From IMG/VR virus record IMGVR_UViG_3300005326_000717, positions 1 to 46,962 of that record: a stretch of 46,962 nt of DNA. One strand, written 5' to 3'. The notes beneath the pieces were generated by a model, which had not been told where the DNA came from, did not search any database, and saw only the letters and a list, made by a program, of their open reading frames with translations. Positions 4,042 to 30,986 of this stretch are shown piece after piece. This DNA is from a virus (taxonomy: Duplodnaviria; Caudoviricetes). The number at the start of each line of letters is the position of its first letter. The stretch's first letter is position 1. A program made the translations under genes and the position numbers.

Positions 4042-4799
4042 TCACCATGCCCCCCGAATGGATCACCGGGACCCTCACCGACTTCGAGGACCACATTATC
4101 CGTATTGACGATGTGCCGCACCCGGCTTACGACTCCGCAATGAAGATCTGCCGCTCACTCCTCTCCAAGAAATCGAAGGTCGATTACAAGCTGACCGATA
4201 AGGGCGAGATCTGCGACATCCGCCCGTTCAAACCGAACGGCAGCCAGCCGAGCCAGCCAGCAGCACAGCCCTCCGCAGCAAAGCAGGACCCGCCGAAAGG
4301 TAACAGCACGTCCCCCCGGGCGCCTCCTGCCGATGCCAACAAGCCGAAGAATGTCGAAGGGCAGATAACGGCCATCGATCACGGCACTCACAAGATATCT
4401 GTCAAGGACAAAACCGGGCAGGTCCACGAGTTCGTCTGGTCCGGCAATGTCAAGATGACCAACAACAAGGGAGAGCCGCTGAAGCAATGGTGGTTCATCA
4501 AGGTGACCGGAGAGCCGGCCGGGGATCTCTGGAAACTCACCGCTCATGCATACTTCAAACGCCCGGACGACTGGCCCCTCGGCAACAAGGGTGGCAACGG
4601 TGGGGGCGGAGGCCAGCCCCGCAACGAGAAGGCGATCCTGTTCCAGTGCCTGTTCAAGGGAGCGGTAGAGATCCGGAAACAGCAGCTCGCAATGAACGCA
4701 GGGATGTCCCCGTTGGCCGATGTCCTCAAGGAATGCGTCACCGCGGCGAAAGAGGCCCTGCCGGAAGCGCTCACAGCGTCGGGGGTGACAGCCCCATGA
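4038..4799 (+). CDS. Putative OB-fold/ssDNA-binding protein
   Basis: Two beta-rich segments (WITGTLTDF..., VEGQITAIDHGTHKISVKD...) separated by a Pro/Gln linker; directly upstream of mre11. Confidence 0.4.
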   Translation: MITMPPEWITGTLTDFEDHIIRIDDVPHPAYDSAMKICRSLLSKKSKVDYKLTDKGEICDIRPFKPNGSQPSQPAAQPSAAKQDPPKGNSTSPRAPPADANKPKNVEGQITAIDHGTHKISVKDKTGQVHEFVWSGNVKMTNNKGEPLKQWWFIKVTGEPAGDLWKLTAHAYFKRPDDWPLGNKGGNGGGGGQPRNEKAILFQCLFKGAVEIRKQQLAMNAGMSPLADVLKECVTAAKEALPEALTASGVTAP

Positions 4800-5920
4800 A
4801 GATCATCCACACCGCAGACGCTCACTTCGGGAGAGCTCGGTTCAATAAGGCGACCCAAGACGGCTCCAACCTTTTTGAGATCACCTGTTATGAGAATGCC
4901 CGGCTCGGTACACAGCACATCATCGACCAGAATCCGGACGTTGTTCTCAAATGCGGGGATAAGTTCGATTCAGTCACCCCGAAGACGATATCGATCACCG
5001 CTGAACAGGAAATCCTAGAATGGTACGAGGAAGCAGAAATCGACGTTGTTGAAATCAGTGGGAATCACGACATGCCGAAAATGTCCCATGTAAGATGCCC
5101 GCTCGATATCACATCGCGGAGCAACATGATCCACTCCGCTCATGCGTACCGGTACCAACGTGTCGAGATCCAGGATACGATCTTCCACCTGATCCCAAAC
5201 ATGCTGCACGCAGCGGACTACAAGACCGCCATGAAAGAGGTCGAGATCAGCAACAGCCACAACAACGTGCTCGTCACCCACGGCCTAGCGACAACGATCC
5301 GGGATAAGCGCCTGAATGAAGCGGCGGAGTTCGAGCTGGACGAGAACATCCTCACCGATCAGTTCGATTACATTGCCCTCGGCCACTACCACGGACAGGA
5401 ACAGGTCGCCCCGAACGCATGGTATTCTGGCTCACAGGAACACCTCGCCTACGGAGAGATCGACAACATCAAAGGCGCTCTCGTAGTGGACCCGGCCCGG
5501 CACACAGTAGATCACCTCGACCTCCCGTGCATCCCCATGACGGACCTCGGCACAATCCACTCTGCCGAACTGTCAGGGGAACAGCTCGCCGATATCATCA
5601 TCCGGAAGGCCGAGAGCTTGCCCGTCAACTCAATGGCGAGGATCACCCTGGACTTCATGGACTTCCCGGTGCGCGTCGTACCGGAAGAAGCCCTCGAAGC
5701 GATCCGGGACCGGCTCCTGGATCTCAACATCCGGAACAAGTCAAAAGCCGCCGATCGCGCCGAGATCCAACAGCAGGACCTCCGGGCCATCGACTATGTC
5801 GGGGAGTTCGGCACCTTCCTGCAACAGCGCCCCCTCACCGACCAGCAGCGGGCGGCTGTGATGTTGCGGGGCACCGAGACCCTTAAAACCGTAGTGACGG
5901 AGCGGGGGGTGTCAGCATGA
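4796..5920 (+). CDS. mre11: Mre11/SbcD-family metallophosphoesterase nuclease
   Basis: HTADAH, GDKFD, GNHD, THG, ALGHYH, YSGS motifs; true start MKIIHTAD at 4796. Confidence 0.92.
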   Translation: MKIIHTADAHFGRARFNKATQDGSNLFEITCYENARLGTQHIIDQNPDVVLKCGDKFDSVTPKTISITAEQEILEWYEEAEIDVVEISGNHDMPKMSHVRCPLDITSRSNMIHSAHAYRYQRVEIQDTIFHLIPNMLHAADYKTAMKEVEISNSHNNVLVTHGLATTIRDKRLNEAAEFELDENILTDQFDYIALGHYHGQEQVAPNAWYSGSQEHLAYGEIDNIKGALVVDPARHTVDHLDLPCIPMTDLGTIHSAELSGEQLADIIIRKAESLPVNSMARITLDFMDFPVRVVPEEALEAIRDRLLDLNIRNKSKAADRAEIQQQDLRAIDYVGEFGTFLQQRPLTDQQRAAVMLRGTETLKTVVTERGVSA

Positions 5921-8337
5921 AGATCACAGAAATCCACCTCATCCGGTTCAAGCGGTTCGGGCGTGTCGATATCGTAATCCCGGACGACGCCGAGTTCATC
6001 TGTATCACCGGCCCGAACGGCTCCGGGAAATCCACATCCCTTAACTCCGTAGAGTTTGCCCTGTATGGTGTCAGTGGCGGACTCAGCGCAGATCATATCG
6101 TCAGCTCCTTCGCAGAGCCTGGGGAACGGTGCGAGGTCGGGCTCGAATTCACCCACTCGGGGCACAAGTTCAACATTCTCCGGACATTCAAAAAGGGGAA
6201 GTCCATCCAGCACGACGCCGTGATCAAGTGTGACGGCGAGGTCCGGGCCACGGGCGTCTCCGCAGTAGAGGCAGAGGTCATACGGACAATCGGCCTGACT
6301 GCCAAAGATTTCAACATGGTCGTCTACTCGAAGCAGGACGACCTCCGGGCCATCACGGACATCACGCCCGGCAAACGCGAAGAATGGTTCCGCAAAGGGT
6401 TCGATCTCGATTTCATCAAGACCGCGAGCGAGAAGATCCTCAAGGAGAGAATCAAGGCAACAGAGCAGGCCATCGCAACGCTCCAGGGCGAGCTTGCCGC
6501 ATTGAGCCGGCAGGACCCGGCCGAACTGGGGCAGACCAAGAAGGACCTCGCGGATCTCAGTGAGGCAATCTTTACCCTGAAAGCACAGGAACAGGAACAG
6601 CAGGCCGCCCGGGCAGCCTTCGCCACGCAAAAGCAGGAATACGATCTCAAGACCGTGCAGCAGAGCAAACTCGTGGATCAGCACAACGGCCTGCTCTTCG
6701 ATATTGACACCATCCGGAAACGGATCGAGACTCTTGGGGTGCAGCTGGGATCTCTCACGGTCGATACCGAAGAACTCGCCCGGCTGGAGAAAGCGGCTGA
6801 TGAGATCCCGCAGGCCCGGCTAGATGTCGAAGGGTATCGGACGAAGAAGGCCGAGGCTGAACGCATCAACACTGAGGAAAAGGCAGCATTACGGGAAGAG
6901 GCAAACATCAGGGAGCGCAGGGACCGGGTACAGGCAAATCTCGCAGATCTCGAAACCTCGGAGAAAGAGCGGGAGGACCTGTACGCGAAAGTCAGGGTCG
7001 CCCTTTGTCTGCTCGAAGATGAGGATGTCGATAACGGCGTCGCAGAGTACCAGAAACGCACAACCGAGAAGATCGCATACCTGAACGCGGAAGCGCGGAC
7101 CAACAGGGGAGTGCAGGACAAAATCCGGAAGAGCCTAGAATCGATCCGCGACATCGGGCCTGAGGGAACATGCCCTACATGCCTACAGAAACTCGGGGAG
7201 CATTTCGGAACCGTCGAGGCCGATTACCTGGCACAGCTCAATGAGGCCGTCGACGAAGAGCACGATATCGACGCGAAACTCGACACTGCTCTCCATGAAT
7301 CGCAGAAGATTCCCGACCTCAAACCCATCCTCGATCGCATCAAGCAGATATCGACCGCGCTCGGGTACCGGGAGAATCTCCAGAACGAACGCGAGGATCT
7401 CAACAAGGGAATCCTGAACGTCACTCAGAGGATCGGGGACCTCATCGAGGAGTACTGGAAAGTCAGGTATAACGAAGAGGATCACCTCGCCTGCAAAGAC
7501 AACCTCGTCAAGCTCGAAGCCGCACAGACTCAGTATACCGAACTCACCAAGCGGTCAGCAGAACCGGCCGGCATCAGGGCACAAGTCGCCGAGCTCAACA
7601 GTCAGATCACCACGAAGAACGCAACCCGTGCCGAAGTCAAAGCTGTGATCGACGCCAACCCGATCATCCTCACGGAAGGCCCCCGGCTCACCCACGAGAT
7701 CGAGAATCTCGACATCAGCCTGAAGAACATCACGCAGGACCTCGCCACCTCCATTGAGCGGGAAAAGACCCTCACGCAGAAGGTAACGGATCTCGAGATC
7801 GCAGCGGCAAGCATCGGGACCGTAGAGCAGCAGCTCGCAACGCTCAATGAAGAACTGGAAGTCCTGGCACTGACCCGGTCCGCGATCTCCGATTACGTCC
7901 TGTATATCATGCAGGTCATGAGGTCCGCGATCGAGACCGAGTCCAGCGCAATCCTCTCAGGCATCACCGAGGGCAAATACTCGCAGGTGATTGTTGACGA
8001 GGGGTTCAACATCCTGATCCGGGAAGGTGACAAGGACTATGCGCTCGACCGGTACAGCGGCGGGGAGCAGGACGTGATCGCTCTCTCCCTCCGTATGGCT
8101 CTGTCGAACATCATACCGAAGCTGCACGGAGTTCACGAAACATTCCCGTTCCTGATTGATGAGGGGCTGTCCTCTCTTGACCCGGAGCGGAAAGAGAACA
8201 CCGTCCGTGCTATGCGGCAGCAGGCCAAACGCTGCGGGCAGGTCTTCAACAACACTCACGATCAGGAAGTAGTCGGGGATTACAACCTGAGGGTTCAGGC
8301 AAACGGGCCGGTCAGCACCGTGCAGGCAGGTGCGTGA
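5917..8337 (+). CDS. rad50: Rad50/SbcC SMC-family ATPase
   Basis: Walker A GPNGSGKS, long coiled coil, CPTC zinc hook, YSGGE signature, Walker B FLIDE, D-loop SLD, THD. Confidence 0.93.
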   Translation: MKITEIHLIRFKRFGRVDIVIPDDAEFICITGPNGSGKSTSLNSVEFALYGVSGGLSADHIVSSFAEPGERCEVGLEFTHSGHKFNILRTFKKGKSIQHDAVIKCDGEVRATGVSAVEAEVIRTIGLTAKDFNMVVYSKQDDLRAITDITPGKREEWFRKGFDLDFIKTASEKILKERIKATEQAIATLQGELAALSRQDPAELGQTKKDLADLSEAIFTLKAQEQEQQAARAAFATQKQEYDLKTVQQSKLVDQHNGLLFDIDTIRKRIETLGVQLGSLTVDTEELARLEKAADEIPQARLDVEGYRTKKAEAERINTEEKAALREEANIRERRDRVQANLADLETSEKEREDLYAKVRVALCLLEDEDVDNGVAEYQKRTTEKIAYLNAEARTNRGVQDKIRKSLESIRDIGPEGTCPTCLQKLGEHFGTVEADYLAQLNEAVDEEHDIDAKLDTALHESQKIPDLKPILDRIKQISTALGYRENLQNEREDLNKGILNVTQRIGDLIEEYWKVRYNEEDHLACKDNLVKLEAAQTQYTELTKRSAEPAGIRAQVAELNSQITTKNATRAEVKAVIDANPIILTEGPRLTHEIENLDISLKNITQDLATSIEREKTLTQKVTDLEIAAASIGTVEQQLATLNEELEVLALTRSAISDYVLYIMQVMRSAIETESSAILSGITEGKYSQVIVDEGFNILIREGDKDYALDRYSGGEQDVIALSLRMALSNIIPKLHGVHETFPFLIDEGLSSLDPERKENTVRAMRQQAKRCGQVFNNTHDQEVVGDYNLRVQANGPVSTVQAGA

Positions 8338-13584: not shown

Positions 13585-14090
13585 TCACCCCCCTCTCGTG
13601 CACCTGCCCCGAGGCAACGCACACCGCCAACCACCGGGCCAACCTCTCGGACATCTGGCAGACCCCCGAATGGATCGGGGAATCCACCGCGTACAAAGAC
13701 CGGCACTTCCCGGTCTGTTCACGGTGCGGCATTGTCGGCCCCATCGTGCCCGGCCACAAGGAAGAGGACTACAAGGACATGGCGACCTACATCCAGAAGG
13801 TCCGTGAGGATCGGGTCGTGCCGCTCTGCCACCGGTGCAACAAGGAAGAATCGAAAGGCCGGCACCCGTGCCCGTCCTGCATCGAAAAGCACCGGGAAGA
13901 CCCCGACCACTGGATCCGGTACATCGGGCGGGATGCGGAAGTGTGCCCGGAGTGCCGATCACCGGAAGAGAAAGCAGCCAGTGAAGTGAAGGCGATCGGG
14001 TTCCACCGGTTCGTGCGAGGAGTACGGGACCGGGACAATGCCCGGAGAAGGGAGATTTACCGGGAAAGGAAGGAGGCATCCCCATCATGA
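13581..14090 (+). CDS. Zn-binding HNH-like protein
   Basis: CSRC...H...LCHRCN plus CPSC and CPEC. Confidence 0.5.
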   Translation: MITPLSCTCPEATHTANHRANLSDIWQTPEWIGESTAYKDRHFPVCSRCGIVGPIVPGHKEEDYKDMATYIQKVREDRVVPLCHRCNKEESKGRHPCPSCIEKHREDPDHWIRYIGRDAEVCPECRSPEEKAASEVKAIGFHRFVRGVRDRDNARRREIYRERKEASPS

Positions 14091-15562
14091 GCGATCCCGT
14101 AGTTGTCGATATGTTCTGCGGTGCCGGTGGTGAGAGCCAGGGGATTGACGGCTCGGCAAAGAAAGCCGGCGTCTCCATTGAGATGTTCGCCATCAACCAC
14201 TGGGAGCGGGCGATCGAGACACACCGGGCAAACTTCCCCGCAGCGGCGCACATCTGCCGGGACGTCCGTGACATCGACCCCTCCTCGCTGATGGAAGGCC
14301 GGAAGGTTGCGCTCCTGTGGGCCTCCCCGGCCTGCACGCACTTCTCCGTTGCCCGCGGGGGGAAACCCTGCGATGACCAGAGCCGGTGCACCCCGTTCAC
14401 GGTCCTGGACTGGCTCGACAAGATCACCGTGGACCGGGTCATCATCGAGAACGTGCCGGAGTTCCAATCGTGGGGCCCGTTGGATGAGGAGACGCACCGG
14501 CCCATACCGGAAGCGAAGGGAGAGACTTTCGCCGCGTTCATCGGCATGATCCGGGGCCTCGGGTATTCTGTGGACTGGAACGTCCTCAATGCTGCGGATT
14601 TCGGAGCCCCGACAACCCGGCGCCGGCTGTTCATTCAGGCAGTGAGGAACGGATCCGGGAAATCGATCATATGGCCCGAGCCGTCGCACGCGCAAGCCGG
14701 GCCGAACCAAACACTCACCGGGGATTTGCCCTCATGGGTACCAGCCCGGGACATCATCGACTGGACCCTCCCGACGCAGATCATTGACGAGAGATCAAAA
14801 CCGCTTGTGGCGAACACCATGAAGCGGATCTGTCGGGGGATTGAGAAATATTGGGGAGAGTACGCAGCCCCCTTCCTGGTGCGCTACAATGGGGGAGATG
14901 GTCGGGTCCATTCGCTCAACGAGCCGATCCCGGTCCTCGACACATCGAACCGGTACGGGCTTGTGCAACCTCTCGTGATGCATATCGGGCAGACATCCAG
15001 TAAAGGCCGGGTGCGGAGCGTCCACGAGCCTCTCGCAACAGTCGTCACGAAAGAAGAAGCGTGCCTGATCGAGCCGCTCTTTATCCCGCAGCACTCATGC
15101 GGAGAAGTGCGCCCGACATCTGGCCCGCTGTCAACCGTTGCGACGAAAGGCGCGATCGGTCTCGTTGAACCTCTCTTCATACCGTACCGGTCGACCGGAG
15201 CCGTCCGGCCCGCATCTGGCTATCCGATCCCAACGCTCGTCACTTATGGATGGGTGGGCCTTGTCGAACCGTTACTGATGAATTATTACGGGAACGGGAC
15301 GTGCGAACCAATCTCAAAACCAGTACCGGCAGTCACCACGAGAGACCGGTTTGCACTGATCACTCCTGAAAACTGCCGTATCGGATTCCGGATGCTGAAG
15401 CCCCACGAACTCGCAGCGGCACAATCGTTCCCGCGTGACTATCGCTTCACGGGCAACCGTGGCGAGATCGTCAAGCAAATCGGCAACGCCGTTTGCCCGG
15501 CAATGGCGGAGGCCCTGACCACCGGCTATATGCAGGAACTGGCTGCGGGGTGTGGAGCATGA
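14087..15562 (+). CDS. C5-cytosine DNA methyltransferase
   Basis: DMFCGAGG, catalytic SPAC, ENV, TTRRRLF, QIGNAV. Confidence 0.93.
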   Translation: MSDPVVVDMFCGAGGESQGIDGSAKKAGVSIEMFAINHWERAIETHRANFPAAAHICRDVRDIDPSSLMEGRKVALLWASPACTHFSVARGGKPCDDQSRCTPFTVLDWLDKITVDRVIIENVPEFQSWGPLDEETHRPIPEAKGETFAAFIGMIRGLGYSVDWNVLNAADFGAPTTRRRLFIQAVRNGSGKSIIWPEPSHAQAGPNQTLTGDLPSWVPARDIIDWTLPTQIIDERSKPLVANTMKRICRGIEKYWGEYAAPFLVRYNGGDGRVHSLNEPIPVLDTSNRYGLVQPLVMHIGQTSSKGRVRSVHEPLATVVTKEEACLIEPLFIPQHSCGEVRPTSGPLSTVATKGAIGLVEPLFIPYRSTGAVRPASGYPIPTLVTYGWVGLVEPLLMNYYGNGTCEPISKPVPAVTTRDRFALITPENCRIGFRMLKPHELAAAQSFPRDYRFTGNRGEIVKQIGNAVCPAMAEALTTGYMQELAAGCGA

Positions 15563-16965
15563 CCGAGCACCGCATCATACAAGGCGACGTGCTGGACGGA
15601 TTGAGGACCCTGCCGGATTGCTGCGTGCAGGAGGTTATCACCAGCCCCCCATATTATGGACTCCGTGATTATGGGGTGGACGGGCAGATCGGTCTCGAAT
15701 CAAGCCTGCAGGAATATATCGGCAAACTCGTGGAGGTGAGCCGGGAGCTTCGCCGCGTTCTCCGTGACGATGGCGCATATCTCCTGAATCTCGGGGATTG
15801 TTATGCAGGCAGCGGAAAGGGTCCGAGTAAATCGCTCAACGCCAAAAACCCGCACTCGCACATCGCAGCGGAACGGAGGAAGGGCCTCGATAAATCCGAC
15901 AGTAATCGGAGAAGTCAGAAATATAATTTACTCGGAGGGGATGTTCCCGGGGGTCTCAAAGCAAAGGACCTCATGGGGGTGCCGTGGCGAGTTGCCTTCG
16001 CGCTCCAGGATGATGGCTGGTACCTCCGCTCCGACATCATCTGGGCGAAACCGAATTGTATGCCGTCAAGCGTCAAGGACCGCCCGACCACAAGCCACGA
16101 GTATATTTTCCTGCTGACGAAAAAGCCCCGGTATTTCTGGGATGGCGAAGCGATCCGGGAACCGGTGAGCGAGAGTTACGCCAAGGACAAACGCCCTGTC
16201 GGTATTCTCAGGCAGCGGGTGAACAAAAACACGAAGTACCCGAGAACGGGACAATTCAAGCAGCAAAAGCTGAGCGGTCGTGCAGCTCGCCCTCCAGGAA
16301 CCCGGGAGAACAATCTCCATAAAGGTCCGGTTGTTCGAGCGATTTTCAGAGGGGGAGGAAAGTATACCGAAGGACAGAGTTTTGACAACTCAACCCCGGT
16401 AGATAATCAAGTCCCGGGAAATGTCCCAAATCTCTGCCTCTCCCGCAATGCCCGGTCCGTGTGGGTTATCTCACCACAGCCCCGTCCGGAGGCACATTTC
16501 GCAACATTCCCGGATGAGCTGGCACGAAGGTGCATAAAGGCCGGCACGAGTGAAAAGGGATGCTGCCCGTCATGTGGTGCCCCGTATCGCCGGATCGTTG
16601 TTGCCACCGGAGGCACGATCGGTAAGAGCTGGACCCCACATGATGACGATCTCGGAGTGGGCGCCAAGTGTGGTGCGCCTTCCGCGGGTTATCATCGGGA
16701 GTTCCTCGGGTGGGAGCCGACCTGCAAGTGTGAAGCCGGTGATCCGGTGCCCTGCACGGTTCTGGATCCCTTCATGGGTTCGGGAACTGTTGCCTGCATG
16801 GCCCGGGATCTCGGGCGAAATAGCATCGGGACCGAGATCAATGCCGAGTACATCGCTATAGCAAGGCATCGCCTTCGGGCAGATGAGCAGATCCCCGCGG
16901 GGAACCGTCATGTCGAGTATCGTTTTGAGAAAGTAGCAGTAGCCGTCGTAGAAGGAGGAAATTGA
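15559..16965 (+). CDS. N4-cytosine/N6-adenine DNA methyltransferase (beta class)
   Basis: ITSPPY, IIWAKPN, HFATFP, LDPFMGSGT; start MTEHRIIQGD. Confidence 0.92.
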   Translation: MTEHRIIQGDVLDGLRTLPDCCVQEVITSPPYYGLRDYGVDGQIGLESSLQEYIGKLVEVSRELRRVLRDDGAYLLNLGDCYAGSGKGPSKSLNAKNPHSHIAAERRKGLDKSDSNRRSQKYNLLGGDVPGGLKAKDLMGVPWRVAFALQDDGWYLRSDIIWAKPNCMPSSVKDRPTTSHEYIFLLTKKPRYFWDGEAIREPVSESYAKDKRPVGILRQRVNKNTKYPRTGQFKQQKLSGRAARPPGTRENNLHKGPVVRAIFRGGGKYTEGQSFDNSTPVDNQVPGNVPNLCLSRNARSVWVISPQPRPEAHFATFPDELARRCIKAGTSEKGCCPSCGAPYRRIVVATGGTIGKSWTPHDDDLGVGAKCGAPSAGYHREFLGWEPTCKCEAGDPVPCTVLDPFMGSGTVACMARDLGRNSIGTEINAEYIAIARHRLRADEQIPAGNRHVEYRFEKVAVAVVEGGN

Positions 16966-20185: not shown

Positions 20186-20478
20186 CAGAAGGAACCAACG
20201 AACCGACACGCAGCACGGAGGAATCGCAACCCGATTACCGGAAGAAATGGGTGGTCCCGAAACGGAAACGCGGAGGGATCGAGAAAATCCACCTCATGAA
20301 CACCAACGATGAGGCTTTCTGCGGGCGACACATCAACCCGGATCCAAAAAAGATCCTCGACTTCGATGACTACTGCCCGCTCGATCATCAGGATAAGGTC
20401 TGCCCAAAATGTCTGGAGTGGTGGAACAGCATCCGCCCCGGGAAGTACGGCAAGAAAAAATCTCTGGCAAAATCCTGA
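20182..20478 (+). CDS. Small Zn-binding protein, last early gene
   Basis: H..FCG...CPKC. Confidence 0.55.
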   Translation: MTEGTNEPTRSTEESQPDYRKKWVVPKRKRGGIEKIHLMNTNDEAFCGRHINPDPKKILDFDDYCPLDHQDKVCPKCLEWWNSIRPGKYGKKKSLAKS

Positions 20479-20487
20479 TCGGAGTGA

Positions 20488-20560
20488 TCCACATGAAGCC
20501 ACCAAACGCCATATAAGGCCACATGAAGCCACAAAGAGCCGCATAAGGCCGTATAAACCC
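20488..20560. repeat. 10-bp-period degenerate tandem repeat
   Basis: ACATGAAGCC/ACCAAACGCC/ATATAAGGCC/ACATGAAGCC/ACAAAGAGCC/GCATAAGGCC/GTATAAACCC. Confidence 0.85.
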
Positions 20561-20643
20561 TCTTTTATCCCACTCCCCCGTGCACTCTTCTGTGTTATGC
20601 CCCGGCACCTTGTCCGGGGAAAATGTAGGAAGTGTACACGTAA

Positions 20644-21153
20644 ATGACAGGCACAAGCGAAAGCGACACGATCAACATCAAGGTCGTGCCGATTGAAGTG
20701 ACGGACGACAAGTCCCAAGTCAGCCTTTCCGGGATGTTCTTCAACCAGAACGAGATCCGGGAAGAGGACGAACCAGTACAGGCGCTCACCATCGCAAAGG
20801 ACACCCTCGACCGGTCGAGCGGGTTCATTGTCGGGAGATTCAAGTACAAGATCGACGCCAGGTCAAAGATCATCTGGCAGGTCGCCATTGATGGCCGGCA
20901 GCTGGACGGGTATGGTACCGGCGTCCCGTACGGCGCAAGTGAAGGAATCTATGACACCCCCCTGTTCAGGTATCCCGGCAGTGCACGGGCCAACAAAGAC
21001 GGGCTTCACAAGGTCCATGTCGAGTACGGCCTGATCACCGGCATCGCGGAAAACGCCCTCGGGTTACTCGACGGGGGAAGGGTTCGGTCAATCGGCTCGG
21101 CTGACTTCACGATCAATCTGCTGCCCCACACGGCCCCTTTATCTTCGGGGTGA
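20644..21153 (+). CDS. Hypothetical beta-rich protein
   Basis: First ORF after the intergenic repeat. Confidence 0.6.
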   Translation: MTGTSESDTINIKVVPIEVTDDKSQVSLSGMFFNQNEIREEDEPVQALTIAKDTLDRSSGFIVGRFKYKIDARSKIIWQVAIDGRQLDGYGTGVPYGASEGIYDTPLFRYPGSARANKDGLHKVHVEYGLITGIAENALGLLDGGRVRSIGSADFTINLLPHTAPLSSG

Positions 21154-21689
21154 CGCAGCCCCATGTCGAATCGCAGCGAAAAGAGAGCACAGGCCCGGCC
21201 GAAGAAAGGGTACAATCCAGCGAACCCTCCGAGCAAGTCGCATCCGTTTTGGGGGTGACGGCCGTGACCGAATCCCCCGGCCCGTATCCGCCCGGCACCC
21301 CTCTCGGCATCAGCGGGCACCCTCTCGGCCCGCTCAAACCCACGGACCGGAACGGCCACGAGTACAACAGCTACGACACCGCGGGCGAACATGCCGAGAT
21401 CCTCACGATCCCGGACTGGTTCCCGATCGCATCCTTGCGCGGCAAAGTCCTCTGGGACGGCATCTTCAGCTGTTACTATGACATCCATCTCGGCATCAAT
21501 GCCTTCCTTGCAGGCTGGCGCACGAAACAGAACGAGGACGTCCCGAAATGCCCGCCCTTGTGGGCTCCAAAAGAGCATTACTGGGGTATTGCAGATATCG
21601 CGTATGACATCAAGCGTGGCAGCCAGGGCGCCATTATCGGCGGCGCAATCATGATCCTCACGCTGCTGAAAACATACGGTGTAATCTGA
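21150..21689 (+). CDS. Hypothetical protein with C-terminal TM helix
   Basis: Ends GAIIGGAIMILTLLKTYGVI; start uncertain. Confidence 0.55.
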   Translation: MTQPHVESQRKESTGPAEERVQSSEPSEQVASVLGVTAVTESPGPYPPGTPLGISGHPLGPLKPTDRNGHEYNSYDTAGEHAEILTIPDWFPIASLRGKVLWDGIFSCYYDIHLGINAFLAGWRTKQNEDVPKCPPLWAPKEHYWGIADIAYDIKRGSQGAIIGGAIMILTLLKTYGVI

Positions 21690-21699
21690 TGAACACCAC

Positions 21700-21799
21700 G
21701 GGACCCGAGCTTATGTTTTCTGGGATGACTCCCCGGCACGGCATAAGCCTCACGGATGGAAAACGTAGAGCGGCGGTTCACAGTTCCGCCCGGGTCCCA
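21700..21799 (+). ncRNA. tRNA-like cloverleaf with expanded D-arm
   Basis: Acceptor GGGACCCG/CGGGTCCC+A; arm GCTTATG...CATAAGC; arm CTCACG...CGTAGAG; T-like arm GGCGG-TTCACAGTT-CCGCC. Confidence 0.55.
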
Positions 21800-21803
21800 T
21801 CTC

Positions 21804-22029
21804 CCTTCATGCAGAAGGCTCGTTTGACCGCGTTCCGGCTGCGTGTGGGGATCAATCCAACAATGAATTTCCCCTCAAATTCCGCTCGTCACGTACTACC
21901 CGGAGGCTCACAGGCGCCCTCCGGACGAGCGTCACCCTGTCGCCGGGTGCACCGGCCCGATAAGACAAGCCACACACACCAGGTAAGGATTTCATCATCT
22001 CGTAGAGATTGGCCCGGTTGACAGGGACA
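21804..22029 (+). ncRNA. Hairpin-rich putative structured RNA
   Basis: CCTTC/GAAGG; TTTGA..GGGGA/TCCCC.TCAAA; CGCTCGT..CCGGAGG/CCTCCGG.ACGAGCG; CCCTGTC.CCGGG/CCCGG..GACAGGG; ATCTC/GAGAT. Confidence 0.45.
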
Positions 22030-22043
22030 TCAGAAAAACAGCA

Positions 22044-22121
22044 GCAATCCTCGACTAATGGTCGGTCCTAGCGCCCAGAAGTGGGAAGACGCAGATCCGG
22101 GTTCGAATCCCGGCGGTTGCC
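22044..22121 (+). tRNA. Atypical tRNA or tRNA-like element, anticodon not assignable
   Basis: Canonical T-arm CCGGG-TTCGAAT-CCCGG, D-arm GACT-AATGGTC-GGTC, acceptor GCAATC/GGTTGC; anticodon arm non-canonical (GCG..CCCA-GAAG-TGGG..CGC). Confidence 0.65.
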
Positions 22122-22125
22122 TTCA

Positions 22126-22299
22126 ATGACATGCACAAACGATCCCTATCGCCACTATGATGACGGCACATGCACGGCAGCCACCTCATCATCAGCAGCA
22201 CTTGAAGATCGCTGGCCGTCATTCCCGATCGTTGAACAGATGCCGAAAATCACCGAGCGGCAGATCTTCAAAACCATGCGTATGCGGGGCATCCGATGA
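22126..22299 (+). CDS. Hypothetical protein
   Basis: MTCTNDP... ATGA-coupled to next gene. Confidence 0.4.
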   Translation: MTCTNDPYRHYDDGTCTAATSSSAALEDRWPSFPIVEQMPKITERQIFKTMRMRGIR

Positions 22300-22676
22300 C
22301 CGAAACCCCCCGCAAGATCCTCTATATCTCCGGTCCCTTCAGCTCCGCTCCTGCAGGGTACGATCCCCTCCACGCCACCGAGCACAACATCAACGAAGCC
22401 TCGCGGTACGCCCTCATGGCAGCCCGCCGGGGATGGGTGCCGTTCTGCCCGCACAAAAACACTGCAGGATTCCAGCACACCGATATCCCATACGAGTTCT
22501 GGATAGAGGCCTGCCTGGAGTTCGTCCGAAGATCCGACGCCATCCTTATGATCCCCGGGTGGGAAAGCAGCCCCGGCGCAAAGCGGGAATGCGCCCTTGC
22601 CACGCTCATAGGAAAGCCGGTCTATTACTTCATGGGTGATGGGATACCCGGGCCTGAAACGGGGGTATCAAATTGA
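22296..22676 (+). CDS. DUF4406/nucleoside deoxyribosyltransferase-like protein
   Basis: LYISGPFS, PFCPH, DAILMIPGWESSPGAKRE. Confidence 0.85.
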   Translation: MTETPRKILYISGPFSSAPAGYDPLHATEHNINEASRYALMAARRGWVPFCPHKNTAGFQHTDIPYEFWIEACLEFVRRSDAILMIPGWESSPGAKRECALATLIGKPVYYFMGDGIPGPETGVSN

Positions 22677-23926
22677 AGAAACAAGAGCTGCGAAACGTCC
22701 CGCTCCGTAATCTGATACCGTACCGGAAGAAAGTGCACGACACCACGAAAGCCGTGCCAGACATCATCTCATCTCTTGAGAAATTCGGATACGTCAAGAT
22801 CTCGATCGTTGTCGATGAAAATATGGAGATCATCTGCGGCCAGGGCGTGCTGAAAGCCATGGAAAAACTCGGCTGGCCATCAGTCCCTGAAGTCACTCAG
22901 GTTACTGGAATGCCCGACACCCTGAAACGGGAATACCGGCTTGCAGATAACCAGGCCGCCGCGAGATCCCAATGGAATATCGAAGCCCTGCTGCAGGAAA
23001 TTGAAGAGATCAAAATCGACGACAAAGACTTCCAGATCGGAGATATCGGATACCTCCAGAAAGAACTCGATCAGATGCAGCACGACATTGAAGCCGAGAA
23101 AAATCTCCAGGATGATGACTTCGACCCGGAAAGCATCAGGCCGACTGACATCAAATACGGCGACATCTTCGAACTCGGCCCGCACCGCCTCATGTGCGGA
23201 GACTCAACAAAGCCCGAGGACCTGCAGCGGCTCATGGATGGCGCCCTGGCGGATCTGGAATTCACCGATCCCCCGTATAATGTCGCGTACGTCGGCAAGA
23301 CAAAAGCCGCTCTCACCATCAAAAACGACTGCATGAGCAAGACCGATTTTTACCAGTTCCTTTTGAAAGCATATCGGGCCATGCATGCCACATTGAGGCC
23401 CGGCGCCCCGATTTACGTTTGCCACTCGGACTCCGAAACCCTCGCATTTCGGCAGGCCTTCATGGAAGCCGGCTTCGAGCTCAAACAGTGCATCATCTGG
23501 GTCAAGGACCAGTTCGTTCTCGGCCGGCAAGATTACCAGTGGCGGCATGAACCCATCCTGGAAGGCATCAAGATCGACAGTGTCAAAGAGCACGATCCGG
23601 TCCTGTACGGATGGAAAGGGGGCGCCGCTCATCGATGGTTCGGGGGCCGTTGCCAGGATACGATCTGGGAGATCCCGAAACCGAAACGGAACGCCGAACA
23701 TCCGACCATGAAACCCATCCCGCTGGTGGGCCGGGCGATCCTGAACTCCACCATTGAGGGAAACATCGTCCAGGATGCCTTCGGAGGTCTCGGCGCCACG
23801 CTGATGGCATGCGAGCAGACCGGCCGGGTCTGCCGGATCAATGAGCTGGATCCGCACTACTGCCAGGGCATCATCGACCGTTGGGAAAAGTGGACCGGGA
23901 AGACCGCGGTGAAGGTGAAAGCGTGA
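22673..23926 (+). CDS. ParB-N domain fused to N6-adenine DNA methyltransferase
   Basis: ParB-like IVVDEN..IICG...YRLADN; FTDPPY, HPTMKP, DAFGG.G. Confidence 0.9.
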   Translation: MKKQELRNVPLRNLIPYRKKVHDTTKAVPDIISSLEKFGYVKISIVVDENMEIICGQGVLKAMEKLGWPSVPEVTQVTGMPDTLKREYRLADNQAAARSQWNIEALLQEIEEIKIDDKDFQIGDIGYLQKELDQMQHDIEAEKNLQDDDFDPESIRPTDIKYGDIFELGPHRLMCGDSTKPEDLQRLMDGALADLEFTDPPYNVAYVGKTKAALTIKNDCMSKTDFYQFLLKAYRAMHATLRPGAPIYVCHSDSETLAFRQAFMEAGFELKQCIIWVKDQFVLGRQDYQWRHEPILEGIKIDSVKEHDPVLYGWKGGAAHRWFGGRCQDTIWEIPKPKRNAEHPTMKPIPLVGRAILNSTIEGNIVQDAFGGLGATLMACEQTGRVCRINELDPHYCQGIIDRWEKWTGKTAVKVKA

Positions 23927-24120
23927 TGCAGGTTCTCATCAGTGATGACAGGGGGCAACTCAACCGGGTAAAATGCCCTCGTCCCTATTTCCCCCCGGTC
24001 CCGCTCGATGTCTGCCGGAAGTGCCCGTGGTTTGTCAGCATCCAGATCCCTCCCAATGACCCGGCATACGTTGTCTGTCGTCTTGAAGGAGAATGGCGCA
24101 ATGCGGAGCTGGTGCCCTGA
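23926..24120 (+). CDS. Small Cys-rich protein
   Basis: CP..CRKC..C; TGATG coupling. Confidence 0.5.
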   Translation: MQVLISDDRGQLNRVKCPRPYFPPVPLDVCRKCPWFVSIQIPPNDPAYVVCRLEGEWRNAELVP

Positions 24121-24842
24121 TGGCAGCCGCGAAGAAGAAGGCCCCGCTTCCGGAGAGTAATGACAACTGGAAGATAGTCGATCCGAAGGATGCAAAGAAA
24201 GAGATCAAAAAGGCCCTCTCAAAAAAGAAATCCGGGAAAAAACGCCCGGTGATTTCACGAAAAGGAGCGCAGAGAAAGCCCGGAACCGGAAAGAGTGCGG
24301 CAAAGAATAATAAAAAGGTCGAGATAAAAAAGGAACCACAACCGCCGAAAAAACCCGGACGCTCGACGAAATACGACCCGGATACTCATCCCCTCATGGC
24401 ATGGGTCCTCGCGGTCCTTGGGAAGACCAATAAAGAGATCGCGAAGGAACTTAGCATTTCCACGGGCACTCTCTTCGCATGGGGCAAAGAGCACCCAGAC
24501 TTTCTAAGTACCGTAAAAGGGGGGAAAGAACTCGCCAACGCCCGGGTGGTCAAAGCTCTATACACGCGGGCAATCGGCACCCGTTATCCTGAGACAAAAA
24601 TCATCCAGAATCCCGACGGCACCACTCGCAAGGAGGTTACGATGAAGGAGATCCCGCCGGATGTAACTGCGATCATTCGTTGGCTTACGAACCGGGATCC
24701 CAAGAACTGGAGAGATCTCAAGAGTGTGGCCCTTGGCGGGGATCCCGGCGCACCCCCGGTCCAGATCACAAATATGTCTGACGAGGACCTCCTGAAGAAA
24801 GTCGCAGAGATCGCAGCCAGACAAAAGAGCGGAGGCCCGTGA
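24120..24842 (+). CDS. terS: Terminase small subunit
   Basis: GRSTKY, HTH (TNKEIAKELSISTGTLFAW), PPDVTAIIRWLTNRDP; upstream of terL. Confidence 0.85.
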   Translation: MAAAKKKAPLPESNDNWKIVDPKDAKKEIKKALSKKKSGKKRPVISRKGAQRKPGTGKSAAKNNKKVEIKKEPQPPKKPGRSTKYDPDTHPLMAWVLAVLGKTNKEIAKELSISTGTLFAWGKEHPDFLSTVKGGKELANARVVKALYTRAIGTRYPETKIIQNPDGTTRKEVTMKEIPPDVTAIIRWLTNRDPKNWRDLKSVALGGDPGAPPVQITNMSDEDLLKKVAEIAARQKSGGP

Positions 24843-26273
24843 GTGTCTGAAGCCTGCCTGTCTCCCGAGGATCGCGCAGCCTGTGAAGAGATTCTGCTGA
24901 GGGTGGCCCGGACAGACTTCTCGCAGTATTGCGAGCTCACATACCGGGGATTGTGGCAGCCGAACCGATACACTGATCTGATCTGTGAAAAGCTCGAGAA
25001 GGTGGAACGGGGCGAGATCAGGAAAATCATCCTCACACTTCCCCCGCAGCATGGTAAGAGTATGTGCGTGACCGAGACGTTCCCCTCCTGGTTCATTGGG
25101 AAGGACCCGACACGCAACGTGATCGAGGTCTCATATTCGGATGAGTATGCCCGGAAGTTCGGAGGATCGAATCTCAAGAAGGTCAAGGACTTCGGCAATC
25201 GTCTGTTTGGCATCGAAGTGGACCCGCGGAGGGGATCGGACACCTACTGGCAGGTCAATGGATACCGAGGCGGCATGATCAGCGCAGGGGTCCTTGGAGG
25301 TATCACGGGGGCGGGCGCGGACCTGCTGCTCCTAGACGACCCGATCAAGAACTTTGAGGAGGCCAACTCGGTGGTATACCGCGAGAAGATCTGGAACGAA
25401 TGGCAGTCCACGTTCAGGACCCGGGTCCATGCCGATGGCGTGATCATTGTCATCCTAACCCGGTGGCATGAAGACGACCTGATCGGGAGGATCCTGGAAT
25501 CACCCGAAGCGGACGAATGGCTGGTTATCCGGCTGCCGGCAGAGGCGGAAGAGAACGACCTGATCGGCCGTGAGGTGGGAGATCCACTCTGGCCTGAGGA
25601 GGGGTACGGTAAACAGTGGATGGCCGATCAGAAAGTGGCAGTCGGGCCATATGTCTGGACCGCGTTATACCAGGGCCGCCCCACTCCAGCAAGCGGGGAG
25701 ATCATCAGGCGGGAATGGTGGAAGTTCTACGACGAGTTACCCGCGAAGTACGACGAAATCACCCAGGATTGGGACCTTGCCCTGAAAGGAGGCCCCAACT
25801 CATCACGGGTCTGCGGACAGGTCTGGATGGATTCTGGCGCCAACAGTTACCTTGTCGATATGGTCTGCGATATCATGGACTTCCCGGCAACGCTCGACGC
25901 CATGAGGACCCTGTCAGGCAAACACCCGGAGGCTGGCTCGAAGTATGTCGAGGACAAGGCAAACGGTCCCGCTGCGATCGCTATTCTGAAGAACGAGATC
26001 CCCGGGCTTATCGAGGTGCCCCCGCACGGAGACAAGGTTACGAGGGCCAAAGCTGTGACCGGCTTCATCAAGGCGGGGAACGTGTTTTTGCCGAGCCCAA
26101 AGGCATTCCCGGAGAAAGCCGCATGGGTCCACGACTTTATCCAGGAGTGCAGTTCGTTCCCCCGGGGACGGTATAACGACAAGGTGGATGTTATGAGTCA
26201 GAAGTTGAGCAGGCGATTGATGAAACGACTGAAAAAAGACCGCTATTTCCATTCAGCAGGAGGAAGACGATGA
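24843..26273 (+). CDS. terL: Terminase large subunit
   Basis: PPQHGKS Walker A, LLLLDDPIK Walker B, TRWHEDDL, WDLA, EDKANG, FPRGRYNDKVD nuclease. Confidence 0.95.
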   Translation: MSEACLSPEDRAACEEILLRVARTDFSQYCELTYRGLWQPNRYTDLICEKLEKVERGEIRKIILTLPPQHGKSMCVTETFPSWFIGKDPTRNVIEVSYSDEYARKFGGSNLKKVKDFGNRLFGIEVDPRRGSDTYWQVNGYRGGMISAGVLGGITGAGADLLLLDDPIKNFEEANSVVYREKIWNEWQSTFRTRVHADGVIIVILTRWHEDDLIGRILESPEADEWLVIRLPAEAEENDLIGREVGDPLWPEEGYGKQWMADQKVAVGPYVWTALYQGRPTPASGEIIRREWWKFYDELPAKYDEITQDWDLALKGGPNSSRVCGQVWMDSGANSYLVDMVCDIMDFPATLDAMRTLSGKHPEAGSKYVEDKANGPAAIAILKNEIPGLIEVPPHGDKVTRAKAVTGFIKAGNVFLPSPKAFPEKAAWVHDFIQECSSFPRGRYNDKVDVMSQKLSRRLMKRLKKDRYFHSAGGRR

Positions 26274-27562
26274 TCATTAAACCAAACTTATGGCAACGTG
26301 TAAAGGCATTCGGAAAATCAGCAGCCCCGCAGGTTGCGAGGAAGACCATAATCTCCGGGGGTCCGCCCAAGTATTTCTCCCCCGAGATTCGAAATAACGA
26401 AAACCTCAGGAAATGGCGGGATATCTACGAGCAAGGTGGCATCATCAGCGAGGCCATCGACGCCTATCCGCTGGCCATCTGGTCCAAGGGGTACCGGCTT
26501 GAAGGGGGAGAGGCCGAGAAGACACTCGTCCAGGACCGCCTCGACACGTTTGATCTCGTGACTCAAGCAAAGATGCTCATTACCGAAGCACTGGTCTGCG
26601 GTGACGGGTTCGCGGAGAACGTGCAGAACGTAAAGGGCGATGCGTTCGCCTGCCTTGAAGTGAAACCCGCCGAGATGATCCAGCTTGATCAGGATATCAT
26701 GGGGACCGTGACAGGGTACAAGTTCGTACCGGACACCACACTCACCGGCAAGACAGTCCCGCTGGCCTTGGAAGACATCACCCGCCTCACACTCATCAGG
26801 TCGCCGAGGAATCCCTACGGCACGTCTCTCATTAAGAGAGCGATCGATGAGATCACCCGCGATACCAAGACTGCAGAAGGATCCGCCGGGGCGATCGAAC
26901 GACATGGTTTCCCTAAATGGCTGATCAACGCCACCGCACCCGGGACCCCGGATCGTCCCGCGGAATCGCTCGATGAAGAGACTGCCAAGAAGATCGAGCA
27001 TGAGTTCGAGGAACTGAAATACAAGTCGGAGTTTATCGCAGACGGCGATATCAAAGCAACCGCGATGGATACCGGGGGCGTGCAGAACATCCAGCAGTAC
27101 AACGATGTCATGCTCCAGCGTCTCTGTGCTGCCATTGGCGTCCCGCGTGAGATCCTGCAACTCACCGAAGGCGGTCTCGGAACAGGAGGCCCATCAGTCC
27201 GGATGGATGTCTGGTATGATAAGATCGAGGCCATGCAACAGCAGGTCGCCCGGTGCCTGAACCTGAACGTCATCGACCGGATCACCGGCAGGTCCGGCAG
27301 CGTGAAGATCGTCTTCAACAACCCTCGCCCCAAGAACTTCATCGCCGAGGCAACCGCGATCGCCGCCCTCCGACAGGGTATGGACCCCGACGCCGTCTGT
27401 CCGGCAGACTATGCCAGGGAAAGGCTTGGGATCCCGAAGGATGAAAGCGCGATTGATAAGGTGGTCCCGGAGCCGCAGGAAAAGAAGAAGACTCCTGAAG
27501 AACTCCGCGACTGGTTACTGGCCCAGATAAAGAAGGAGCCGAATGCCGCCACAGCAGAGTAA
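26270..27562 (+). CDS. Portal protein
   Basis: 430 aa after terL; ALVCGDGF, NPYGTS, AAIGVP..L. Confidence 0.85.
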   Translation: MIIKPNLWQRVKAFGKSAAPQVARKTIISGGPPKYFSPEIRNNENLRKWRDIYEQGGIISEAIDAYPLAIWSKGYRLEGGEAEKTLVQDRLDTFDLVTQAKMLITEALVCGDGFAENVQNVKGDAFACLEVKPAEMIQLDQDIMGTVTGYKFVPDTTLTGKTVPLALEDITRLTLIRSPRNPYGTSLIKRAIDEITRDTKTAEGSAGAIERHGFPKWLINATAPGTPDRPAESLDEETAKKIEHEFEELKYKSEFIADGDIKATAMDTGGVQNIQQYNDVMLQRLCAAIGVPREILQLTEGGLGTGGPSVRMDVWYDKIEAMQQQVARCLNLNVIDRITGRSGSVKIVFNNPRPKNFIAEATAIAALRQGMDPDAVCPADYARERLGIPKDESAIDKVVPEPQEKKKTPEELRDWLLAQIKKEPNAATAE

Positions 27563-30860: not shown

Positions 30861-30986
30861 TATTTCAAACTCCTTGATTGCGCAGTTCTAAGGGTTTGGG
30901 GAATTAATATTCTGCTATAAAATAAAATGCCGCTCTTTTGCAGATTTACATAAAATCCCATATCCCTGTTGCGACCCAATAGTACT

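Follow-up and report, generated by a model that had tools for sequence, protein, structure and literature searches.

A tRNA-like array ahead of the packaging genes of a provirus, likely of methane-making archaea, as a candidate site of transcript punctuation

Why would a virus whose genes overlap their neighbors keep a structured, seemingly noncoding stretch just upstream of its packaging genes? The question is raised by a 47-kb provirus record (IMG/VR IMGVR_UViG_3300005326_000717), all 46,962 nucleotides of which were analyzed and are called the window here. Pfam and PHROG matches place an integrase gene at the left end of the window (positions 1 to 1086) and identify siphovirus-type morphogenesis genes. 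The original prediction described the stretch as two noncanonical tRNA-like elements around a hairpin-rich region, which might excise one viral RNA of ~240 nt. We found that five helix-closed units, M1 to M5, make up the cassette as an array, in place of one 240-nt RNA between brackets.

The host of the window virus is likely a member of the Methanoregula family, because a capsid relative was found within a Methanoregula MAG and because homologs of the gene preceding the cassette (the companion gene) occur in 6 of 228 genomes of this family, the same 6 being the only ones among 401 genomes of the class. The cassette-bearing virus family as a whole likely infects methane-making archaea. Two other capsid relatives (L127 and L129) lie in MAGs labeled bacterial and are possibly mis-binned archaeal virus contigs. 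The window also holds three DNA methyltransferase genes (C5, N6/N4, and ParB-fused; 14087-16965 and 22673-23926) and a Mre11/Rad50-like pair (4487-8337). A noncoding gap at 20478-20643, with a 14-nt motif present twice, AT-rich stretches, and a hairpin, is a candidate late promoter region, and an AT-rich gap preceding the head genes (30880-30968) suggests a second promoter for the capsid genes, which have strong Shine-Dalgarno (SD) signals.

The cassette is flanked by genes on the plus strand. The companion gene (21150..21689, start possibly later) encodes a protein of unassigned function with a hydrophobic C-terminus; it has no match in Pfam, PHROG, or Atlas and serves as a marker of the cassette in relatives. 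Downstream, a 57-codon ORF (22126..22299, plus strand) starts 4 nt past M5 and would be the first cistron of the predicted leaderless mRNA; its homolog (L107/L110) covers the last 20 residues only. Overlapping plus-strand genes for a DUF4406-type protein, a ParB-MTase, a small ORF, terS, terL, and portal follow (22296..27562; Pfam/PHROG), confirming that the cassette lies just upstream of the packaging genes. A 110-codon plus-strand ORF (21689..22021), whose ATG overlaps the upstream stop, does traverse M1 to M4 of the stretch first described as lacking a credible ORF. It has no homolog, no Pfam or PHROG match, and no conserved peptide among relatives, and it was rejected as a protein-coding gene for lack of homologs or a conserved frame; it may possibly serve ribosome read-through.

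Folding of the plus strand resolved the individual units. M1 (21700..21799) is the predicted cloverleaf, with an 8-bp acceptor-like helix (21700-21707/21791-21798), an unpaired A at 21799, a long arm (21709-21748), a second arm (21749-21770), and a T-like arm (21772-21790) with a 9-nt loop. Its fold gave z scores of -3.7 and -4.1, and 0 of 200 shuffles were equally stable. The region of ~21802 to 22026 is structured, as had been proposed, and consists of three separate units. M2 (21802..21851; z, -3.2) is a bulged hairpin with a conserved C-rich/G-rich closing helix. M3 (21883..21932; z, -2.9) is a minimal tRNA mimic, in which a 7-bp acceptor-like helix is stacked on a T-arm-like hairpin; it rests on single-sequence folds, because no consensus structure emerged for it from MAFFT plus RNAalifold and an alignment of M2 to M3 gave 4 pairs only. 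M4 (21935..22027; z, -1.9), a candidate released small RNA, has a 7-bp closing helix and a second helix around a G-poor, weakly folded interior. M5 (22044..22121) is a degenerate tRNA with 6 of 7 acceptor pairs, a canonical T arm (22097-22113), and a bulged hairpin with a 4-nt loop in place of the anticodon arm; an RNase Z cut is predicted after 22121. The second tRNA-shaped unit is therefore present on the strength of its T arm and of full tRNAs at the same position in relatives, its folding by itself not being significant (z, -0.9).

The near-continuous folding first described calls for a correction: the 441 nt folded as one piece were not unusually stable (z, -1.6; 8 of 100 shuffles equally stable). 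Within a long precursor, the closing helices of M2, M3, and M4 formed with a probability of 0.84 to 1.0. The acceptor of M5 was marginal in context (pair probability, 0.03 to 0.57, and ~0 in the longest fold); across relatives, an acceptor pair probability above 0.5 was obtained in 20 of 27 cassettes, much as in 22 of 30 host tRNAs. One run, guessed to be RNA, contained three depth-2 contigs, one spanning 22033-22182, which show neither ends nor strand.

Neither M1 nor M5 qualifies as a tRNA gene. M5 scored 21.4 bits (E, 0.23) against the Rfam tRNA model RF00005, which has a cutoff of 29 bits; M1 did not match this model, and ARAGORN called no tRNA anywhere in the window. A 7-nt anticodon loop on a 5-bp stem is absent from both, the third arm of M1 having a 9-nt loop and M5 a 4-nt loop, in agreement with the original prediction. 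What both units have is an acceptor helix stacked on a T arm with an unpaired discriminator (6 of 7 pairs in M5). No Rfam family reached its cutoff in the window, where M5 gave a weak match to RF01684 (16.8 bits; cutoff, 42.5), and no family except tRNA was matched in the window and relatives together.

To place the array among its relatives, 27 distinct cassettes were located through homologs of the companion gene and with DNA patterns and two covariance models, and were delineated by eye. They come from related viruses and from Methanoregula-family genomes; the loci are related and not independent. Duplicates were left out, as were L113 (deletion), L215 (contig ends), L214 (which has the companion gene without a cassette), and L098, L099, L108, and L044 (single or unclear folds). 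Three of the latter hold single small tRNA-like folds after the companion gene with no close downstream start (L098:3464-3540, L099:3390-3480, and L108:1865-1925), and in L099 the next gene is convergent. Two covariance-model matches (L212 and L213, a host tRNA) were false. Among loci found by protein alone, 11 of 14 distinct viral ones had a multiunit cassette after the companion gene, and a cassette was present in 9 of 10 companion-gene loci from the 6 genomes of the Methanoregula family. One complete host chromosome (G362:C1) carries three related proviruses, near 105 kb, 796 kb, and 2077 kb, each with a cassette; G141 carries one.

Overall sequence has strongly diverged among these relatives, and the closing helices have been retained. 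In the M1 acceptor, 84 of 84 cells were paired, with two-sided change at 3 of 7 pairs; in the M4 closing helix, 104 of 105 cells were paired, with two-sided change at 3 of 7 pairs (11 cells). Homologs thus show the compensatory change expected of conserved structure, at levels that exceed 500 shuffles and slid controls on most measures and that are inflated by kinship and hand-picked ends. The terminal helices contain 23 G-U versus 1 A-C, which indicates an RNA of the plus strand. Acceptor and T-arm geometry is retained, and the D and anticodon arms vary freely.

The units are gained and lost singly. L105 and L106 lack M2 and M3, the order differs in L103, M1 stands alone in four loci (L047, L050, L218, and L219), and an identical copy of M3 lies beside other neighbors in runs X6 and X7. 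These findings argue against the excision of one ~240-nt RNA, since its supposed middle comprises three units that are lost or swapped independently, among them a third mimic (M3), and since M1 is the sole unit in four loci. Of the 27 cassettes, 21 retain M4, which shows short motifs in a set order and a closed stem. The M4 model found three matches, all training loci, in 50 viral records, most of them picked for their capsid similarity, and no new copy in 1.1 Mb around capsid relatives; the array is therefore either restricted to part of the virus group or too diverged to be found this way. A loose T-arm pattern gave 88 viral matches, mostly chance or ordinary tRNAs, and a metagenome pattern gave 4, including one copy of the window, one true tRNA, and one truncated by deletion.

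Six of 27 cassettes have a complete tRNA gene as their last unit, at the M5 position (one each for Ile, Gln, Met, and Thr and two whose anticodon arms are odd). Last units range from such genes through D-arm-less forms to acceptor-plus-T-arm minima of 34 to 47 nt. An origin of the units in viral tRNA genes is probable, given that some relatives retain a full tRNA at the end of the cassette. An anticodon loop is missing from M1 in every cassette, and yet M1 is able to stand alone. Among the tRNAs themselves, an initiator-type tRNA-Met (L040:1780-1855) has an anticodon stem that has been replaced, with C at position 33, and tRNAs in L013 and L261 have lengthened anticodon arms.

The most conserved feature of the cassette is a start codon 3 to 5 nt after the last unit, and our firmest new result is that the next ATG lies within 5 nt of whichever unit is last. 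Measured from the 3' end (discriminator) of that unit, the distance is 5 nt or less in 23 of 27 cassettes and 3 to 5 nt in 22 of them. This holds whether the last unit is M5, M3 (L103), or M1 (L047, L218, and L219), it precedes 15 of 17 unrelated ORF families, and of 9 loci that came to light once the rule had been noticed, 8 followed it; in L264, the gap reads 15. The same short gap occurs after 3 of 44 host tRNAs, 4 of 25 tRNAs in other viral loci, and 0 of 57 internal units and at 5% of window positions. Short gaps are partly expected, because these viral genomes are very compact. Several of the short downstream ORFs have no homolog among the loci compared; the gene after the cassette in L104 was found coupled to an upstream ORF in L107, and at least some of these ORFs are therefore real genes that moved into the slot.

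Genes with a short gap pair weakly with the 3' end of host 16S rRNA (median, -3.5 kcal/mol) and mostly have no SD signal, compared with a median of -7.4 kcal/mol for 19 gap-separated genes of the window. Three of the four long-gap exceptions carry a clear SD (-8.4 to -8.5 kcal/mol). Fair SD-like pairing within the acceptor strand was found for three short-gap genes, those of the window (-6.2), L217 (-9.8), and L117 (-12.8). In uncut RNA, the start region costs 12.3 kcal/mol to open versus 10.2 kcal/mol for other genes of the window, which is not clearly higher and does not separate the classes, and occlusion of the start was accordingly rejected as added support.

We consider it on balance probable, judging from sequence comparisons, that the array is punctuation of the t-element type, where the late transcript would be cleaved by host RNase P and RNase Z to yield a leaderless packaging-gene mRNA. 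The cassette would be transcribed as part of the late operon, and the two enzymes would cleave at the borders of the units, both 5' and 3', reading the retained acceptor/T-arm geometry. The upstream mRNA would be ended by RNase P ahead of M1; M2 and M4 would be freed as small RNAs by cleavage around M1, M3, and M5; and an RNase Z cut after 22121 would leave a 4-nt leader before the ATG at 22126. Leaderless is used for a leader of 5 nt or fewer (PMC7531240), and the packaging-gene mRNA would then be translated as such from its processed 5'-monophosphate end. The translation step is the weakest link of the punctuation reading, because archaeal leaderless mRNAs are described as 5'-triphosphorylated (PMC7531240).

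The enzymes that such cutting would need are encoded by the carrier genomes. All 5 of the 5 examined have an RNase P RNA and a match to RNase Z, the latter exceeding the cutoff in 3. One RNase Z match (G362:C1:873607-874489) falls into two adjacent pieces in different frames, a frameshift or sequencing error. Endonucleolytic trimming after the discriminator is the usual 3' route for tRNA genes without an encoded CCA, and it is the expected route here, since the host tRNA genes examined do not encode CCA. In Haloferax, t-elements excise cargo RNA in vivo, and a t-element cut by tRNase Z makes the 5' end of 5S rRNA (PMC4326828); plant mitochondrial t-elements direct cutting of this kind (PMC1920247). 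The idea that the tRNA-like elements are processing signals thus fits both the covarying acceptor/T-arm geometry and the enzymes of the host family.

The main rival to the punctuation reading is a decaying viral tRNA cluster, whose members are relics or tRNA suppliers that are cut as a side effect, the short gap being compaction. The full tRNAs among the last units and the overlapping viral genes would both follow from it, and altered anticodon loops have been described in phage tRNAs (PMC10264068). Compensatory change has nevertheless preserved the helices even as anticodon arms disappeared, a sign of selection and not drift, and M1 stands alone without ever having an anticodon loop. Compaction would also have to account for cassette gaps that peak at 3 to 5 nt, when only 4 of 25 other viral tRNAs have a short gap. 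We therefore regard decay with compaction as unlikely.

A second alternative is that the released RNAs are the main product and act in trans, as decoys for host proteins that bind or cut tRNA or as sponges, including sponges for SD sequences. The retention of M4 with its ordered motifs and closed stem speaks for such a role, as do two further features of the cassettes. By our own test, a K-turn-like internal loop lies beside the M4 closing helix in 6 of 18 (L013, L076, L100, L112, L114, and L117; the window lacks it), followed in the same six by a small GNRA-tetraloop hairpin. Host anti-SD 7-mers number 32 versus 4.0 ± 2.5 in shuffles, an eightfold excess, with 13 sites, mostly unpaired, in 10 of 24 cassettes and sites in all three later loci. 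Exact copies of 7 to 10 nt of the host 16S 3' end occur in L105 (2465-2480 region), L106, L107, L111, L117, L216, L047, L218, L261 (2404-2413), L263, and L264. Only 7 of 21 M4 interiors beat shuffles for SD pairing, however, and that of the window, in a wobble version, does not (P = 0.07). The virus's own structural genes carry strong SD signals. Four loci manage without M2 to M5, and the units have no anticodon loop with which to bait anticodon nucleases, so that the decoy role first suggested for them is weakened. As the main function, this is distinctly improbable; as a second layer on punctuation, it may be compatible. A mimic of 16S helix 45 plus tail formed by M2 and its linker was rejected (rank 21 of 238 windows; no profile match). 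A combined scheme, in which cutting of the array would make the packaging mRNA leaderless and release anti-SD-bearing small RNAs that damp SD-led host translation, is a speculation to which we give little credence.

We consider it very doubtful that the cassette is one large uncut RNA acting on the nascent late transcript by antitermination or protection. It does lie near the start of a long same-strand gene run, and ornate GOLLD and ROOL RNAs are described near prophage tRNAs (PMC5737381). In 14 of 14 loci that have the ATG overlapping the upstream stop, this ATG opens a frame of 56 to 117 codons through the cassette. Such a stop-coupled frame could, as an idea, hold ribosomes on the cassette RNA and so limit premature termination. 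The open frame is only weakly unusual, with no locus alone reaching P < 0.05 and another frame longer in 5 of 14; moreover, no pairing between units appeared in any fold or alignment, and relatives have lost or exchanged units one at a time. A promoter within the last unit, making a primary leaderless transcript of the known archaeal kind (PMC7531240) with no cut needed, would equally give a start codon at a fixed short distance and is scarcely credible, as by our reading of the sequence the position 25 to 30 nt upstream is a G+C-rich T stem or flank that differs between the M1, M3, and M5 types.

Other classes of RNA and DNA element were compared with the array, and most were set aside. An attP remnant, the explanation given for a tRNA-like gene of halovirus HF2 (PMC8707807), was rejected, as the integrase gene lies at 1-1086 and the cassette at 21.7 kb, and the proviral unit in G362 matches its best own-host tRNA at 45 of 76 positions. 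M5 was rejected as an intron-containing archaeal pre-tRNA, since by sequence reading the helix it contains is 4 bp long, with a loop and a single 4-nt bulge, and modeled removal leaves no U33 and a 2-nt variable region. Among self-cleaving ribozymes (hammerhead, HDV-like, twister, pistol, and hatchet), no Rfam match was obtained in the window up to an E value of 10 or in relatives at cutoff, and our own HDV-like descriptor, which had no positive control, matched 0 of 27 cassettes. Guide RNAs are marked by C/D boxes at a size of 50 to 60 nt or by an apical K-turn with a pocket and an ACA tail. M4 was rejected as a box C/D or H/ACA guide on its size (93 to 170 nt), its basal K-turn-like loop (6 of 18), and its lack of an Rfam match. 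Membership in GOLLD or ROOL was rejected, as neither Rfam model matched the window or relatives.

In the literature searched, we found no description of an array of this kind in a virus of archaea. Candidates resembling tRNAs are mentioned in general terms in a catalogue of candidate RNAs from viruses (PMC10690425), and a cassette unit may already be among its 10,006 candidates. M1 to M4 represent an unannotated RNA family missed by standard tRNA and Rfam scans. If the punctuation reading is true, viruses have one reason to keep tRNA genes or their relics beside late genes that is unrelated to decoding, and initiation by archaeal ribosomes at a leaderless end that is cut and monophosphorylated becomes testable. 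The units would also offer naturally occurring minimal substrates of RNase P/Z, of use for the multiplex expression of RNAs in methanogens.

Several known systems resemble parts of this arrangement. GOLLD and ROOL are likewise noncoding structures beside tRNAs in prophages (PMC5737381); unlike them, the cassette has no Rfam match and no long-range architecture, and its units are independent. Phage tRNA clusters also place tRNA-type genes beside late genes, and 6 of 27 cassettes hold a full tRNA gene, whereas 21 of 27 do not and M1 to M4 have no anticodon loop. The mascRNA and menRNA are minimal tRNA mimics that serve the processing of a cargo RNA, as the units may, but are eukaryotic, with no sequence kinship shown. 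The tRNA-miRNA RNAs of gammaherpesviruses are further minimal tRNA mimics, from a eukaryotic system, that act as processing handles for cargo RNA. Punctuation by tRNAs that makes leaderless mRNA is already known from mitochondria, where a polycistronic transcript is cut at tRNA-shaped sites to give leaderless mRNAs with monophosphorylated ends (PMC7531240). The mitochondrial system uses working tRNAs in an organelle, whereas the units of the cassette are mostly not tRNAs and a single site was found in the viral genome. The closest likeness is to t-elements, known from the 5S rRNA leader of Haloferax volcanii and from plant mitochondrial mRNA ends. These noncanonical tRNA-like folds retain an acceptor and a T arm, and through them RNase Z or RNase P is guided to make the end of a neighboring RNA (PMC4326828, PMC1920247). 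The cassette has this shape and abuts the end of another RNA in the same way, and it appears to work like a t-element array, a membership assigned by shape and position with cleavage predicted. For Arabidopsis, the 5' ends listed lie mostly 66 to 459 nt upstream, with one at +2 (PMC1920247). Unlike t-elements, the cassette is viral, forms arrays of up to five or more units, and ends 3 to 5 nt before a start codon.
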